Origin: a virus
Strand: one strand, 5' to 3'
UHGV virus genome: UHGV-0242872
DNA length: 45,782 nt
Shown here: piece after piece, positions 1 to 45,782 of the stretch
Layout of the letters: every line of letters begins with the position of its first letter
Numbering within the stretch: position 1 is the first letter of the stretch
Notes under the pieces: model-generated
What the model saw: only the letters and a program-made list of their open reading frames with translations
Databases searched by the model: none
What the model was told of the DNA's origin: nothing
Translations under genes and position numbers: made by a program

Positions 1-151
1 GAATGTGTACGGCAACTGAGGCTGAAAGTGTTCATGTTGCAGGATTACGTGAGGAATATTCTGGAATAGTTGCCTTGCATGTTGGAATAATTTATTCTTG
101 ACATGTAAATCCGGGAGGCCCGGATTCCAACGTCCAGGGGACATACTGACT

Positions 152-6306: not shown

Positions 6307-6333
6307 AAGGCCCCTTTCGGGGCCTTTTTCTTA
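6307..6333. terminator. bidirectional intrinsic terminator
   Basis: AAGGCCCC-TTTC-GGGGCCTT hairpin with U-tract; lies between convergent genes ending at 6302 (+) and 6331 (-). Confidence 0.8.
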
Positions 6334-8730: not shown

Positions 8731-8772
8731 AACATAACTCCTGATTTGAGATAACATCGTTGGTGTAAGTGA

Positions 8773-8801
8773 ATAGTACGCTATTATATTGGGGTGTGCA
8801 A
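8773..8801 (-). promoter_or_regulatory. sigma70-like promoter TTGCAC-N17-TACTAT for moron cassette
   Basis: -35 at 8801-8796, -10 at 8778-8773 on minus strand; AATAG-N4-CTATT palindrome 8772-8785 overlaps the -10. Confidence 0.55.
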
Positions 8802-8908
8802 GTAGTGTGCTAGAATAATTTTGCGCCTAGTGTCGCACACGAAAAGCGGGTGGTTCCCGTCTGGCGCATTTCCTTTAACCAGTAACCTCTTAACCAAAGG
8901 ATTAAAGA

Positions 8909-19031: not shown

Positions 19032-19058
19032 AAGGCCCCAAACGGGGCCTTTTCTCTA
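19032..19058. terminator. bidirectional intrinsic terminator
   Basis: AAGGCCCC-AAAC-GGGGCCTT hairpin with T-run; closes structural operon and leftward early operon. Confidence 0.75.
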
Positions 19059-31773: not shown

Positions 31774-31802
31774 TTGACTTTTACTAAGAAATGTGCTAAG
31801 CT
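31774..31802 (+). promoter_or_regulatory. strong extended -10 promoter TTGACT-N17-TGcTAAGCT driving structured RNA copy 1
   Basis: -35 at 31774-31779, TG at 31794-31795, -10 at 31797-31802. Confidence 0.6.
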
Positions 31803-31808
31803 CCACCT

Positions 31809-31915
31809 GAGCTTGTGAAGTATGAACAAGCGACCGCGGTGCGGCAGGAAACGGAGCGGTGCGTCAGCACTGAGTGTAGTGTCGCTGCCTGCATTCGGAA
31901 GGGCCATAATCTATT
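31809..31915 (+). ncRNA. structured RNA element, copy 1 (function unknown; candidate antitermination or regulatory RNA)
   Basis: about 107 nt starting at predicted TSS; paralogous to 45138-45245; hairpin GCUUGU-N9-ACAAGC; compensatory base-pair changes between copies; no ORF. Confidence 0.45.
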
Positions 31916-32003
31916 GTAAATCCCGTCTAAATAACCCAAGTCACTAATAATTAAAAGTTTCTATAGTTGCCGTAAGCAAGGTAGAGAGTACTTCACTCCG
32001 CTG

Positions 32004-32023
32004 GGGTGGGCTAAAGCCCACCC
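32004..32023 (+). terminator. stable hairpin downstream of RNA copy 1 (possible attenuator)
   Basis: GGGTGGGC-TAAA-GCCCACCC, no canonical U-tract. Confidence 0.3.
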
Positions 32024-32082
32024 GCTGCGTTGCGTACTCTTTAAAGAAACAAAAGAATCACAACGGCAACGTAACTATTCTC

Positions 32083-32111
32083 TTGCACACCCCAACATAA
32101 TAGGATACTAT
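32083..32111 (+). promoter_or_regulatory. sigma70-like promoter TTGCAC-N17-TACTAT (rightward early)
   Basis: palindrome AATAG-gata-CTATT 32099-32112 overlaps the -10. Confidence 0.6.
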
Positions 32112-32145
32112 TCACTTATCGAAACGAGACAGAGGAGTGAGGGTT

Positions 32146-33059: not shown

Positions 33060-33206
33060 TGTTCAATAGTTTGGGATTTTACTGAGTGACTTACGCTGCT
33101 ACACAGCAGCGTATCATTTTTCTCATTTTTGTTCTATTTCACCAAACGCAACAATCGAAGCGACTATTGCAGGAGATGCAACAATACAGGCACCAATAAA
33201 ATTTAC

Positions 33207-33235
33207 TTGCACGCTAAGATAGAATAGGCTACTAT
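33207..33235 (+). promoter_or_regulatory. sigma70-like promoter TTGCAC-N17-TACTAT
   Basis: palindrome AATAG-gcta-CTATT 33223-33236 overlaps the -10. Confidence 0.6.
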
Positions 33236-33245
33236 TCATTTACAC

Positions 33246-42046: not shown

Positions 42047-42072
42047 AGAAAAAGGCCCCGTTATGGGGCCTT
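42047..42072. terminator. hairpin terminator (stronger on minus strand)
   Basis: AGGCCCC-GTTAT-GGGGCCT; U-tract lies on the minus-strand side. Confidence 0.55.
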
Positions 42073-42249: not shown

Positions 42250-42296
42250 TTTTCATCTCCTGTTTAAGTTAACTGAATAGTACCCTATTATATTGG
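42246..42296 (+). repeat. 51-nt direct repeat, copy 1 (promoter, operator and SD of a minus-strand small gene)
   Basis: 50/51 identical to 44977-45027. Confidence 0.8.
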
Positions 42297-42305
42297 TGTC
42301 TGCAA
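42277..42305 (-). promoter_or_regulatory. sigma70-like promoter TTGCAG-N17-TACTAT
   Basis: minus strand; palindrome AATAG-tacc-CTATT 42276-42289 overlaps the -10; part of 51-nt repeat. Confidence 0.5.
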
Positions 42306-42349
42306 ATATTATTTTTATGCGTTACACTGGCGATACTACAGGAGGGCAC

Positions 42350-44287
42350 ATGAGCTTACTTACATCCCTAATTAGCCACCAGATATGGCTGCAACGCACC
42401 GCATCCGGTGAAGTGAAAGACCTCACACCATTCATTCAGGAGATGCGGGATGAAATCAAACGGCAAGTGCTGTTATTCGGTGACGACGGTCGTAGCACCG
42501 CGCGACTGAATAAACTGTTACGCGACCTTGAAGAAGCACTGACCGGGCTTACAGGTGACTGGCAAACAAAGCTGACAGAAGACCTTAAGGAACTGGCGGC
42601 ATATGAGGCTGAGTGGAACGTAAAGACACTGACCGCCAACGTAGCTGCGGAATTTGTTACACCTACCGCTGAACAGGTGTGGGCTGCTGCCGAGTTTCAA
42701 CCGTTATCGTTGAGCGACAAGCCTGTTGACTTCACTAAGCTGATGTCAGGTTGGGGTGAAACCGAAGTCGCGCGCCTGGTAACGGGTGTTAAGATGGGCT
42801 TTGTTCAGGGTAAGACAACACGGCAGATTGTTACAGAAGTAGTCGGTAAAGGCGGGCTGGCTGACGTATCAGAGAAATACGCCGCTACCGTAATCCGCAC
42901 TGCGCTGTCTCACGTGTCCAACGAAGCCCGCAATGAAACATACCGCCAGAACGACGATATCATCGAGAAGTACGAATGGGTGTCAACGCTGGACAGCCGT
43001 ACCAGTACAACGTGTTTCACGGCTGAAACAGAATTAGCGCCCATCGCGGGGATGGACGCGGTAATGCGCGGACTCTATTCAGGAAAAATCTTTACCATCG
43101 AACTTTCCAACGGCGAGAAGTTCAGTGGCACCCCGAAACACCCTGTACTCACGCAATACGGATGGACTCCGCTTGATGAACTCGATCCAACTAAGCATGT
43201 CTTGTATACCACTGTTGACAAAGTGACTGTGCTCGAAACAGTGAAGAACATAAACATGCCAGCCAGAGCGGATTATATTTTTAATACGCTCGCTGATTTC
43301 CCCATCAGGAAAATGGTAAGCACGAGTCCCGCGGCAACAGATTTCTATGGCGATGGAGTGGGACTCAATGGCAAAATCGACATTGTACGGACCGATTGCA
43401 AACTGCGGAACTACGTCCACGCCAGCGGAATTAAACAATTCAAAAGCGAGGGTTTCAGTCTTATTCATAGCGCCGCTTTGCTGTCGGACGATAGCTCTGG
43501 CGATTTTCTCCTCCGGGGTGAATGTCCTGTGAGTGTGCCCGCGCTTAGCGAGGCCAAGTGTTTTGACCATAGAATAGAAAACTGTTTTGCTTACTTGGGT
43601 CCTTCTTATGCACTCAATAGGCGGAACGCCGGACTCGAACAATTCTATAGCCCTTTTTTGATTCAAAATGGTGTCGTTAGAAACCCAACCACGGGGTCGA
43701 TCATGCATGAGTCCGAGCTTCTTGAGAAATGTTGTTACCGTGGTGGTAGTGACGCCGTAATTCTTGGCTATGATGCTGGCGGGAGTGCCATCTCGGTACA
43801 AAGAACAAATATCATCCGCATAAGCGTCGAGTTTAGAACGTGCCATGTTTATACCCTCTCTAGTAGTCAAGGATATTATACAGCAGGTAGTGCGATAGTC
43901 AAGAATTGCAGGGCCAGAGACGGGATGACGTGGGAAATTGGTAAGGGGCCGATGCCCCCAGCCCATCCGAACTGCCGGTCGTGCACGGCTCCGGTAATCA
44001 GTTCCGAGTTCGACTTCCTCGATAAAGGCGCAAAACGCGCGGCTAAAGGCGCGGAAGGTGGCACTCAGGTAAGCGCAGACACCACTTACTACGAGTTCCT
44101 TAAACAACAACCGGCGTGGTTTCAGGACCAGGCGCTCGGCCCGGTGCGAGGTAAGATTTTCCGTAACAGCGGTATATCGCCGGAAGAGTTTCGCGTAATA
44201 TCTGTAGATGGTTTCGGGAATCCGCTCACGCTTAAGCAGATGGCGGAACTCGATAAACGTGTTGCTGATTATCTGAAAGGGGAATAA
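42350..44287 (+). CDS. head morphogenesis protein (Mu F / SPP1 gp7-like) interrupted by an in-frame intein
   Basis: ATG 42350 with AGGAGGG SD; exteins join to give DSRTSTT|CRARDGMTWEIGKGPMPPAHPNCRSC; precursor 645 aa, predicted mature 347 aa. Confidence 0.75.
   Translation: MSLLTSLISHQIWLQRTASGEVKDLTPFIQEMRDEIKRQVLLFGDDGRSTARLNKLLRDLEEALTGLTGDWQTKLTEDLKELAAYEAEWNVKTLTANVAAEFVTPTAEQVWAAAEFQPLSLSDKPVDFTKLMSGWGETEVARLVTGVKMGFVQGKTTRQIVTEVVGKGGLADVSEKYAATVIRTALSHVSNEARNETYRQNDDIIEKYEWVSTLDSRTSTTCFTAETELAPIAGMDAVMRGLYSGKIFTIELSNGEKFSGTPKHPVLTQYGWTPLDELDPTKHVLYTTVDKVTVLETVKNINMPARADYIFNTLADFPIRKMVSTSPAATDFYGDGVGLNGKIDIVRTDCKLRNYVHASGIKQFKSEGFSLIHSAALLSDDSSGDFLLRGECPVSVPALSEAKCFDHRIENCFAYLGPSYALNRRNAGLEQFYSPFLIQNGVVRNPTTGSIMHESELLEKCCYRGGSDAVILGYDAGGSAISVQRTNIIRISVEFRTCHVYTLSSSQGYYTAGSAIVKNCRARDGMTWEIGKGPMPPAHPNCRSCTAPVISSEFDFLDKGAKRAAKGAEGGTQVSADTTYYEFLKQQPAWFQDQALGPVRGKIFRNSGISPEEFRVISVDGFGNPLTLKQMAELDKRVADYLKGE
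43079..43846 (-). CDS. HTH plus DUF559/Vsr-like PD-(D/E)XK endonuclease encoded antisense inside the intein
   Basis: ATG 43846 with GAGAGGG SD; two HTH-like segments; endonuclease core YNVDFAIESHSIAIEICCRG...GWHVYVLH; track ORF extends to 44110. Confidence 0.6.
   Translation of the reverse strand: MARSKLDAYADDICSLYRDGTPASIIAKNYGVTTTTVTTFLKKLGLMHDRPRGWVSNDTILNQKRAIELFESGVPPIECIRRTQVSKTVFYSMVKTLGLAKRGHTHRTFTPEEKIARAIVRQQSGAMNKTETLAFELFNSAGVDVVPQFAIGPYNVDFAIESHSIAIEICCRGTRAYHFPDGEISERIKNIIRSGWHVYVLHCFEHSHFVNSGIQDMLSWIEFIKRSPSVLREYRVFRGATELLAVGKFDGKDFS
43875..43902 (-). promoter_or_regulatory. consensus sigma70 promoter TTGACT-N16-TATAAT inside the intein 3' end
   Basis: -35 at 43902-43897, -10 at 43880-43875 on minus strand, about 30 nt upstream of the antisense ATG. 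Confidence 0.6.
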
Positions 44288-44748: not shown

Positions 44749-44752
44749 TAAA

Positions 44753-44778
44753 AGGCCCCGTAAGGGGCCTTAGTTTTC
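44753..44778 (+). terminator. intrinsic terminator
   Basis: AGGCCCC-GTAA-GGGGCCT hairpin followed by TAGTTTTC. Confidence 0.7.
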
Positions 44779-44980: not shown

Positions 44981-45027
44981 TTTTCACCTCCTGTTTAAGT
45001 TAACTGAATAGTACCCTATTATATTGG
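44977..45027 (+). repeat. 51-nt direct repeat, copy 2
   Basis: 50/51 identical to 42246-42296; the pair brackets the head-morphogenesis/intein/Ig-like segment. Confidence 0.8.
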
Positions 45028-45036
45028 GGTGTGCAA
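45008..45036 (-). promoter_or_regulatory. sigma70-like promoter TTGCAC-N17-TACTAT
   Basis: minus strand; palindrome AATAG-tacc-CTATT 45007-45020 overlaps the -10; part of 51-nt repeat. Confidence 0.55.
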
Positions 45037-45089
45037 ACTATTTATTTACGTATTCCAGTTATTCCACCGAATTGTAAATGTTGGAATAA

Positions 45090-45103
45090 ACTATTCGAAT
45101 AGT
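45090..45103. promoter_or_regulatory. perfect 14-bp palindrome ACTATTCGAATAGT abutting the -35 of the RNA copy 2 promoter
   Basis: same half-sites as the AATAG-N4-CTATT operator but everted. Confidence 0.35.
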
Positions 45104-45131
45104 TGACTTTTCACTAAAAATATGATAAGCT
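45103..45131 (+). promoter_or_regulatory. strong extended -10 promoter TTGACT-N17-TGaTAAGCT driving structured RNA copy 2
   Basis: -35 at 45103-45108, TG at 45123-45124, -10 at 45126-45131. Confidence 0.6.
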
Positions 45132-45137
45132 CCACCT

Positions 45138-45245
45138 GAGCTTGTGAAGTATGAACAAGCGACCGCGGCGCGGGCAGGTAACGGAGCGGGACGTAAGTCC
45201 TGAGTGTAGTTACGCTGACGCGTTCGGAAGGGCCATACTCTATTG
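45138..45245 (+). ncRNA. structured RNA element, copy 2
   Basis: first 43 nt identical to copy 1 from the -10 onward; inner stem GGAC-GUAA-GUCC replaces GUGC-GUCA-GCAC of copy 1. Confidence 0.45.
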
Positions 45246-45311
45246 CTTGTGTAAAAAGTAACTGGTTTACTGAGATTACGCCGTTTCTATGTTTAAATGA
45301 TAAGGACTAGC

Positions 45312-45339
45312 GCCCCGCTTTAAGGCGGGGCTTTACTTA
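45312..45339 (+). terminator. intrinsic terminator downstream of RNA copy 2
   Basis: GCCCCGC-TTTAAG-GCGGGGC hairpin followed by TTTACTTA. Confidence 0.65.
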
Positions 45340-45355
45340 TCGAGAAAGGAGAAAC

Positions 45356-45742
45356 ATGAATCTTAAAGCAACCGTCGTAGCAGGAGCATGTTTCATCATC
45401 CTGGCTTACACACACGGCATTTATCAGTACCGCAGCGGCTGGCACGAAGGCCGCGCTAATCTCGTTTCGCAGCAACAGCAGAAAGCGCAGGCTGAGTTAG
45501 CGAAGAAAACACAACGGCAGCAGCAGGACGAATCGAAGGCAGCCGCCGCTGACAACGAAGGCAAGACGAAATCAGAGGTGATTACCCGTGAAGTCGTTAA
45601 GTACATTAGAACGCCTGGTCGCAGCGTGTGCACTTTTGACCCTGAGCGCGTGCAGCTCAAGTCCCGCGCCGTCGCAAACGCCAATTCCATCCCCGGATAT
45701 GACAATGATGCAGCCGCCGTGCAAGCTGGCGCTGCCAAGTAG
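45356..45742 (+). CDS. i-spanin (Rz-like)
   Basis: AAAGGAG SD; N-terminal TM helix then Gln/Ala-rich periplasmic region; embedded +1 lipoprotein ORF. Confidence 0.6.
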   Translation: MNLKATVVAGACFIILAYTHGIYQYRSGWHEGRANLVSQQQQKAQAELAKKTQRQQQDESKAAAADNEGKTKSEVITREVVKYIRTPGRSVCTFDPERVQLKSRAVANANSIPGYDNDAAAVQAGAAK

Positions 45743-45782
45743 CGACGCCGATGAGGATTTGGCTATCGACGTTCAGAACGCC
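45588..45782 (+). CDS. o-spanin (Rz1-like lipoprotein), +1 frame inside Rz, partial at window end
   Basis: GTG 45588 with GAGG SD; lipobox LSAC; Pro-rich; no stop before window end. Confidence 0.5.
   Translation, partial: MKSLSTLERLVAACALLTLSACSSSPAPSQTPIPSPDMTMMQPPCKLALPSSDADEDLAIDVQNA

Follow-up and report, generated by a model that had tools for sequence, protein, structure and literature searches.

The 45,782-nucleotide (nt) viral genome UHGV-0242872, analysed here as one whole stretch (the window), carries a structured RNA of about 110 nt between a predicted sigma-70 promoter and the spanin genes Rz and Rz1. The window is a circularly permuted whole Kagunavirus genome. Alignment with phage Bas73 shows that its last bases continue into its first bases inside the o-spanin gene, and the region is 95-97% identical to Escherichia Kagunavirus phages such as BASEL Bas70-76, 590B and NTEC3. 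An initial annotation had described a palindrome, a promoter, a conserved core, a GC-rich hairpin and Rz/Rz1 at this locus, and all of them can be read from the sequence where it had placed them. The features of the spanin locus are:

45084..45096, no strand: inverted repeat GAATA-AAC-TATTC upstream of the -35 hexamer, overlapping the palindrome; candidate regulator-binding site
45089..45104, no strand: perfect 16-bp palindrome AACTATTCGAATAGTT, abutting or overlapping the -35 hexamer (sequence)
45103..45131, + strand: predicted sigma-70 promoter with -35 TTGACT (45103-45108), a 17-nt spacer, -10 TAAGCT (45126-45131) and extended -10 TG (45123-45124) (sequence and comparison)
45136..45251, + strand: structured RNA core, copy 2 (covariance model R1)
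45252..45311, + strand: AU-rich spacer of about 60 nt from core to hairpin, partly kept with the Jerseyvirus spanin locus (GAUUnCGCCGU...AUGUUUA)
45312..45340, + strand: GC-rich hairpin followed by UUUACUUAU; terminator-like, efficiency uncertain (terminator scan and folding)
45356..45742, + strand: Rz (i-spanin), from the list of open reading frames (ORFs), with the ribosome-binding site AAAGGAG directly 5'; annotated as Rz-like spanin in 97%-identical relatives
45588..45782, + strand, continuing across the window junction to position 69: Rz1 (o-spanin), in the +1 frame, with lipobox LTLSAC; junction checked against Bas73

Sequence variants of the RNA were gathered by pattern scans of viral and metagenome contigs and by BLAST against GenBank phages, and a consensus fold was computed with RNAalifold from 31 distinct Kagunavirus sequences. 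The covariance model built on that fold, R1, has exactly two matches in the window: the core at the spanin locus (copy 2; 140.9 bits, E=1.9e-39) and a paralog on the + strand at 31807-31922 (copy 1; 129.6 bits). The initial annotation had called the element the second copy of a structured RNA, and the R1 match with its covariation bears this out. Both cores begin about 5 nt past the -10 hexamer. In copy 2, P1 is a 6-bp hairpin (45140-45145/45155-45160) and P2 is a long, irregular hairpin made of P2a (45163-65/45225-27), P2b (45169-71/45220-22), P2c (45175-77/45215-17) and P2d (45178-82/45209-13), followed by an internal loop (GGAG/AGUGUA) and an apical helix, P2e (45187-92/45197-202), capped by a GUAA loop. 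A conserved purine-rich tail, UUCGGAAGGGCC, occupies 45223-45234. In the R1-fitted alignment of the 31 sequences, which favours the structure because it is fitted to the model, 93.9% of cells hold standard pairs, compared with 76% in shuffles and 26-41% when the partner is slid by 1-3 columns. Changes on both sides occur in 17 of the 26 pairs, several of which show three or four pair types. Compensatory changes are also seen in the raw sequences, both in the apical stem (GGGAC/GUCC, GGUGC/GCAC, GGGGC/GCCC) and in P2d (GUAAC/GUUAC, GAAAC/GUUUC, GGAAC/GUUCC). Because G-U pairs are frequent, we assign the RNA to the + strand. The parts best kept across Kagunavirus and Jerseyvirus are the base of P2 and its flanks, 5' ACCGCGG and 3' UUCGGAAGGGCC; the apical half of P2, including the internal loop, differs among the copy types A-E described below, and the apical loop is not kept among them. 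We considered pairing of the P1 loop (AGUAUG) with the tail (CAUACU) in a pseudoknot and rejected it, since the tail position facing G varies freely (C/G/A/U). These comparisons indicate that the fold is under selection, and the covariation justifies proposing the RNA as a new family of structured RNAs, well supported and confined to Kagunavirus and Jerseyvirus.

The core matches no family that we compared it with. Searches against Rfam 15 give nothing over the core at the gathering threshold or at E<=10, and blastn against 5,426 complete E. coli genomes finds no host or prophage homolog of the RNA. In the literature we found no description of the RNA and no Guernseyvirinae transcriptomics. 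Comparison by eye with the K-turn, sarcin-ricin, RfaH ops, CsrA-sponge, signal recognition particle domain IV and CRISPR-repeat (Racr) motifs gave agreement over a few bases only. Long, GC-rich structured leaders also precede Rz/Rz1 in Cornellvirus PhiSTP1 and Pantoea phage AH01, where leader and spanin genes form an isolated + strand unit between minus-strand genes. The Cornellvirus, Pantoea and Serratia leaders 5' of Rz/Rz1 (L229 1110-1350, L228 1040-1350, L227 1260-1420) hold a GGGCC-GUAA-GGCC hairpin, the string CACCGGUCAAACAGACAUCGG and a covarying stem (CAGGGAC/GUCCCUG versus CAGGGGC/GCCCCUG). They have in common with the Kagunavirus RNA the string AUAGUCUAUU (in PhiSTP1) and a GNRA-capped hairpin followed by UAGCGU. 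Neither R1, nor the combined Kagunavirus and Jerseyvirus model R2, nor Rfam (down to E<=10) matches these leaders, and Rfam gives nothing for the Jerseyvirus leader either. We regard the Cornellvirus and Pantoea leaders as analogous to the Kagunavirus RNA and do not call them homologous.

Outside the window, R1 also detects the homologs in Jerseyvirus, with E-values of about 1e-9 to 1e-10. A contig scan with the 14-mer TTCGGAAGGGCCAT gave chance matches only; the 659 kb of unrelated DNA that it retrieved served as a negative control, in which R1 finds nothing except one genuine phage fragment. In GenBank, 181 phage records contain the Kagunavirus-type core, at 224 places, so that about one quarter of them have a second copy; the Jerseyvirus-type core is found in 268 records, once in each. 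The RNA lies on the same strand as Rz in 449 of the 485 records with an Rz homolog (about 93%). The variants comprise a near-invariant type A at the spanin locus, diverged types B-E at a second locus, the divergent spanin-locus forms L010 and L030, and the Jerseyvirus form. BLAST of the copy 2 region against the window recovers copy 1 at 31774-31916 with 87.6% identity, from the -35 hexamer to ...CTATTG. The two copies are similar no further than the core's end, so that promoter and core are duplicated as a unit without their flanks. Bas73 lacks copy 1, and its homology to the window resumes only at the early promoter downstream. This distribution points to the spanin-locus copy as the ancestral, near-universal one and to copy 1 as an accessory module. 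In one IMG/VR contig (L005, 3300045988_039442; 2218-2334) a copy-1-type core sits at the spanin locus, with the palindrome 5' and Rz 3', which indicates recombination, gene conversion or exchange between the two loci and suggests that the two core types are interchangeable whatever gene lies downstream. The surroundings of copy 1 in the window are:

31774..31922, + strand: copy 1 with promoter TTGACT-N17 (including TGc)-TAAGCT at 31774-31802, divergent from an HTH_17 gene and 5' of the early rightward operon
31965..32078, + strand: structured region 3' of copy 1, with outer stem GTTGCCGT/ACGGCAAC around the GC hairpin GGGGTGGGC-TAAA-GCCCACCC (sequence and folding)
32083-32111, + strand: early promoter TTGCAC-N17-TACTAT after the copy 1 region (sequence)

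The core of copy 1 is thus followed by a spacer of about 85 nt that is non-homologous to that of copy 2, then by a large stem (GUUGCCGU/ACGGCAAC); the early promoter with its genes comes next. Its GC hairpin has no U tract and continues into GCUGCGUU. In the window and in the relatives L178, L180, L168, L177 and L164 the long stem encloses one of two alternative inserts, one type being a (CTCA)n repeat of 3 to 6 units with a GGUGCC-UUCG-GGCACC hairpin. C-rich, G-poor stretches after copy 1 in relatives resemble Rho-loading sites.

The promoter in front of copy 2 agrees with the sigma-70 consensus at 5 of 6 positions in the -35 hexamer and, for TAAGCT against TATAAT, at only 3 of 6 in the -10 hexamer, and for the latter reason a consensus scan of the window does not list it. 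A search with its own pattern finds matches in the window at the two RNA copies only. The promoter is credible on comparative grounds, because the same arrangement of -35, TG and -10 is present at copy 1, in every copy variant of the relatives and in Jerseyvirus, where it reads T(A/T)GACT-N17 (ending TGt)-TACGCT. The elements named by the initial annotation stand, but its layout of 17 nt followed by TGaTAAGCT does not, since TGa falls inside the 17-nt spacer. Transcription of copy 2 is predicted to start at about 45138. A near-copy of the -10 hexamer follows shortly after it, and the hexamer is complementary to the RNA's start (45126-45143; TAAGCTC-cacct-GAGCTT in Kagunavirus). In Jerseyvirus the corresponding sequence is TACGCT-aac-TACGCT-ttc-AGCGTA (L226, about 1217-1247), the A-to-C change in the hexamer being matched in its partner. 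This arrangement could serve as a sigma-dependent pause element, as an operator covering the transcription start or, in transcripts that read through, as an alternative hairpin.

Upstream of the -35 hexamer, the perfect 14-bp palindrome ACTATTCGAATAGT (45090-45103) of the initial annotation widens to a perfect 16-mer. The 16-mer is nearly invariant among Kagunavirus spanin-locus copies and absent at copy 1, and the corresponding Jerseyvirus sequence is not palindromic. By chance alone it is unremarkable: the window holds two perfect 16-bp palindromes, shuffles hold 0.62 on average, and 45% of shuffles have at least one. What Jerseyvirus does keep is GAATA-N3-TATTC, as GGAATACTTTATTC. The inverted repeat, and not the palindrome noted by the initial annotation, is the better candidate for a regulator-binding site. 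Exact matches to it occur in the window at 45084-45096 and at 85-97, upstream of the scaffold gene; with one mismatch allowed there are 5 matches against 1.45 expected. It also lies 5' of the scaffold gene in Jerseyvirus and Cornellvirus, and the window copy at 85-97 lies directly 5' of TTGACA. The conserved block upstream of the scaffold gene (window 85-126; L226 1936-1985; L229 2436-2485) consists of GGAATAATTTATTC, TTGACA (TTGTTA in Jerseyvirus) and a GC hairpin, which shows compensatory changes across three genera (UCCGGG/CCCGGA, CACCGGG/CCCGGUG, GCCGGG/CCCGGC). Its TGgAATAAT may be the extended -10 promoter of the scaffold/capsid operon.

Each copy of the RNA is followed by a GC-rich hairpin of about -16 kcal/mol. 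At the spanin locus the stem GCCCCGCT/GGCGGGGC (45312-45331) has 8 pairs, 7 of them GC, and continues into TTTACTTATC. Changes in the stem are compensatory in relatives (GCCCTGC/GCAGGGC in L001; GCCCGAC/GTCGGGC in the Jerseyvirus L239), and it forms in both the minimum free energy (MFE) and the centroid folds. The T run behind it is interrupted (TTTACTTAT); it passes the threshold of the terminator scan (5 T in 8) with only 3 contiguous U. In the 268 Jerseyvirus records UUAGCGUAU stands in place of the U tract. To call this hairpin a strong terminator, as had been done, is therefore an overstatement: the hairpin is kept, but its T run is interrupted here and missing in Jerseyvirus and at copy 1. 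In the latter two, where the hairpin has no U tract, the RNA probably remains part of the downstream transcript and is not set free as a small terminated RNA. Both operons contain canonical strong terminators farther downstream: at 1922-1941 (after the capsid gene) and 6307-6326 in that of copy 2 and at 33092-33113 in that of copy 1. Only 17 nt separate the hairpin tail from the Rz start codon (45356). This leaves no room for a promoter, and spanin transcription must therefore pass through the RNA leader. Folding of core and hairpin together revealed no conserved antiterminator alternative and no pairing that couples the core to the hairpin.

The most plausible kind of element, in our analysis, is a phage leader RNA that controls transcription elongation. 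Specifically, we propose a leader that acts in cis to render RNA polymerase resistant to pausing and termination, similar in logic to the put RNAs of phage HK022 and not homologous to them, and we give this proposal a probability of roughly one in three. The RNA would be the 5' leader of transcripts from the strong, conserved extended -10 promoter. Its first approximately 110 nt would fold co-transcriptionally into P1 and P2, with the purine-rich tail behind them, and would act in cis on the RNA polymerase that made them, alone or with a host or phage factor. The resistant polymerase would then traverse the hairpin at 45312-45340 and a long untranslated leader before entering Rz/Rz1 and the genes that follow, and copy 1 would act likewise on polymerase entering the early rightward operon. 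The sequences show the geometry of the promoter and its conservation, the fold, the presence of two copies and their placement relative to hairpins and genes; the start of transcription, any termination by the hairpin and the whole of the cis-antitermination activity are inferred. We prefer this proposal because it fits four facts: the fold is selected; it lies at the 5' end of the transcript; at the spanin locus Rz follows with no intervening promoter and, in many relatives, no credible terminator, which makes the RNA a leader there; and the same module is found at a second operon. Both copies head + strand operons, upstream of GC hairpins and, further on, of the canonical terminators. No N, Q or AlpA homolog was identified among the proteins scanned (the three beside the two copies, Rz and one ORF of the early operon).

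Several observations weigh against the cis-acting proposal. Neither R1 nor R2 finds anything at HK022 putL or putR, so there is no likeness to put in sequence or fold. Most genomes have a single copy, always so in Jerseyvirus. The RNA seems dispensable for the early operon, because a separate early promoter follows copy 1 and Bas73 does without copy 1 altogether. The scaffold/capsid operon seems to own a conserved upstream element, and read-through may thus matter for Rz/Rz1 only. Finally, the hairpins are weak or non-canonical as terminators and may leave little termination to overcome.

Alternatively, the RNA could be a stand-alone small RNA, either of about 200 nt and ended at the hairpin or of about 110 nt and cut from the leader, with its proximity to Rz reflecting synteny only. 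It would work in trans, base-pairing with mRNAs of the host or the phage or titrating a host protein or a defence factor. This main rival is nearly as probable as the cis-acting leader. The RNA has its own, predicted strong promoter, the window provides a hairpin with UUUACUUAU, conservation between the copies ends at the end of the core, and a second, diverged paralog lies elsewhere in about a quarter of the Kagunavirus records. The apical part of P2 varies among types A-E around a fixed base and tail, which could reflect different partners, and the AU-rich stretch past the core could be an RNase E entry site. A trans-acting RNA agrees with the selected fold, the 5' position and the module at a second operon. 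It agrees poorly with the missing U tracts of Jerseyvirus and copy 1, the lack of a long U tail for Hfq and the strict linkage to Rz on one strand. Moreover, BLAST of the region against the window shows no convincing complementarity elsewhere in the phage, and nothing similar exists among the 5,426 E. coli genomes. The idea behind the initial annotation, that the element gates the lysis genes, corresponds to a sensor leader: a riboswitch or protein-binding attenuator that would switch termination or translation of the spanins in response to a ligand or to a phage or host protein. The layout of promoter, conserved structured domain, hairpin, ribosome-binding site and Rz is real and kept, the junction and tail nucleotides ACCGCGG and UUCGGAAGGGCC are invariant, and the long leaders before Rz/Rz1 in Cornellvirus, Pantoea and Serratia phages offer an analogy. 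The terminator-based, lysis-specific part of the idea finds no support in the comparison with relatives. Copy 1 heads the early rightward operon, which has its own promoter, and not the lysis genes; a spanin-specific translational or attenuation switch, although in keeping with the first three of the four facts above, is disfavoured for this reason. There is no mutually exclusive pairing of terminator and antiterminator, the hairpin being present in both MFE and centroid folds; the spacer between core and hairpin is 60-85 nt long and unrelated between the copies; the U tract is not conserved; and the hairpin leaves the Shine-Dalgarno sequence uncovered. The internal loop, a possible ligand pocket, differs among types A-E and Jerseyvirus, and no Rfam riboswitch matches even at E<=10. 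We therefore consider a sensor leader unlikely.

A passive 5' untranslated element that stabilises or processes the mRNA with no regulation, as a block to RNase E or RppH or as an RNase III site, is less probable still. The structure does begin within a few nt of the predicted 5' end, and the scaffold leader likewise opens with a conserved GC hairpin. Yet a protective hairpin needs no 110 nt with invariant single-stranded motifs, and the duplication of a promoter-plus-core module in front of another promoter would be left unexplained. A scheme of the Q or AlpA type is conceivable, in which a promoter-linked DNA site would be combined with a -10-like repeat and with a weak terminator ahead of the lysis genes; it would leave the conserved RNA fold unexplained, and no such protein was identified among those scanned. 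In particular, AlpA-type antitermination by the small HTH gene beside copy 1 was dropped as a candidate, as its 60-residue HTH_17 product has no Phage_AlpA match and no N-terminal ring domain and is far smaller than AlpA. That the locus encodes a small protein is almost certainly wrong. A 36-residue ORF does lie inside the core (45151-45261), and it is labelled "hypothetical protein" in several GenBank records, for example Bas73_0007; a short ORF is also present inside copy 1 (31822-31947). We reject the 36-residue ORF as a gene, since the paralogs are frame-shifted or truncated and give unrelated products of 19, 22 or 41 residues. Of 66 distinct Kagunavirus sequences, 12 lack its ATG (8 at locus 1 and 4 at locus 2), as do the Jerseyvirus sequences, and substitutions track base-pairing, not codons. 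The "hypothetical protein" annotations within both RNA copies are probably wrong.

In Bas73 the annotated gene order around the RNA is terminase, portal, head morphogenesis, Hoc-like protein, a bidirectional terminator, a small minus-strand gene, the RNA, Rz/Rz1, scaffold, major capsid and tail genes. Two further features lie upstream of copy 2 in the window:

44752-44771, both strands: bidirectional terminator upstream of copy 2 (terminator scan)
45009..45037, - strand: divergent promoter TTGCAC-N17-TACTAT, serving the 67-residue gene 44980-44777 (sequence; one of a five-member promoter family)

The five promoters of this family (45009-45037 on the - strand, 42270-42314, 8766-8801, and 32083-32118 and 33219-33242 on the + strand) keep the spacer ACCCCAAyATAATAGG, which suggests a common operator or a phage-specific promoter class. 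A terminator hairpin of the form AAGGCCCC-NNNN(N)-GGGGCCTT recurs at the borders of convergent gene blocks, at 44752-44771, 6307-6326, 19032-19051 and 42052-42072, at least one of them (6307-6326) being flagged on both strands. The head-morphogenesis gene (Mu F-like; 42293-44287, + strand) encodes 664 residues in the window versus 359 in Bas73. The insertion of about 300 residues has a weak intein-splicing match (PF14890, E=4e-4), and a 343-residue frame antisense to it (43079-44110, - strand) has a weak HTH_7 match; the insertion is possibly an intein or a homing-endonuclease insertion.

Few phages of E. coli and Salmonella are isolated more often than Kagunavirus and Jerseyvirus. The RNA accompanies about 93% of the records with an Rz homolog, yet it is unannotated or mislabelled as a tiny protein. 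It bears on how these phages, in which no N, Q or phage RNA polymerase has been identified, organise their transcription. If its action is in trans, it would be a new small RNA of phages, transcribed as soon as infection begins. If it acts in cis, promoter and RNA would form a compact, portable part (a promoter plus 110 nt) for synthetic control of read-through. Phages Bas70-76 of the BASEL collection, which grow on E. coli K-12, carry an identical core, and the question is directly testable in them.

Among known systems, the small RNAs OOP of lambda, Sar of P22, and c4 of P1 and CI of P4, the last two of which are processed from leaders, resemble the Kagunavirus RNA in being short non-coding phage transcripts with their own promoter. 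The RNA here differs from them in lacking an antisense target and an Hfq-type U tail and in not matching the C4 family of Rfam. The int-alpA RNA motif (RF02996) is the sole Rfam match in the window, at 8820-8884 and marginal at 36.6 bits against a gathering score of 35.8. It too is a promoter-proximal structured RNA, right after the extended -10 TGcTAGAAT (8808-8816) and heading the + strand tail-chaperone operon, but it is 65 nt long and unrelated in sequence and fold. Like nutL and nutR of lambda (boxA-boxB), the two copies are promoter-proximal RNA sites before terminators, and copy 2 has a GNRA-type apical loop (GUAA). In contrast to them, nut is much shorter, and here there is no boxA match, no arginine-rich N-like protein was identified among the proteins scanned, and the apical loop is unconserved among the types.

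The lambda pR'-6S RNA-tR' region (Q) and the PalpB-tB region of P. aeruginosa (AlpA), in which tB is a weak terminator (PMC9371919), are alike in combining a constitutive promoter, a short terminated leader, lysis or late genes and a DNA element at the promoter. The -10-like repeat in the initially transcribed region of the RNA (TAAGCT...TGAGCTT here and TACGCT...TACGCT in Jerseyvirus) is a further likeness. Neither system depends on a conserved RNA fold, but in the present RNA it is the fold that is conserved, and the palindrome lies upstream of the -35 hexamer instead of between -35 and -10.

The closest parallel in logic is with the put RNAs of HK022, which suppress pausing and termination in a factor-independent manner through the zinc-binding domain of the beta' subunit. 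They are paralogous two-stem-loop RNAs 3' of early promoters, and with them RNA polymerase resists intrinsic and Rho-dependent terminators without any protein (PMC9378689). In both phages two paralogous RNAs with two stem-loops, at sigma-70 promoters heading operons, lie upstream of terminators; putL, like the RNA here, lies directly 3' of its promoter, and put needs no dedicated antiterminator protein (PMC9378689). The RNAs are not related by sequence: with filters off and at E<=10, R1 and R2 give no match at putL (L159 630-700, minus strand) or putR (L159, about 1858-1930), and by eye they look unrelated. The two stem-loops of put form a fold that binds RNA polymerase; for P1 and P2, the two helical domains supported by covariation, the comparison extends to secondary structure only. 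Furthermore, put is about 70 nt long and comes from a lambdoid phage, compared with about 110 nt and a lytic Guernseyvirinae siphovirus here, and most genomes with the Kagunavirus/Jerseyvirus RNA hold one copy. We think it unlikely that the element represents a second, independently evolved class of factor-independent, RNA-only processive antiterminators, which would reprogram the RNA polymerase of E. coli and Salmonella and would be spread through an entire subfamily of lytic siphoviruses (about 450 sequenced Kagunavirus and Jerseyvirus genomes) as a portable promoter and RNA module able to precede different operons. Should the proposed cis action on RNA polymerase be true, enterobacterial phages would have just two known RNA-only antiterminator systems, put and this one.

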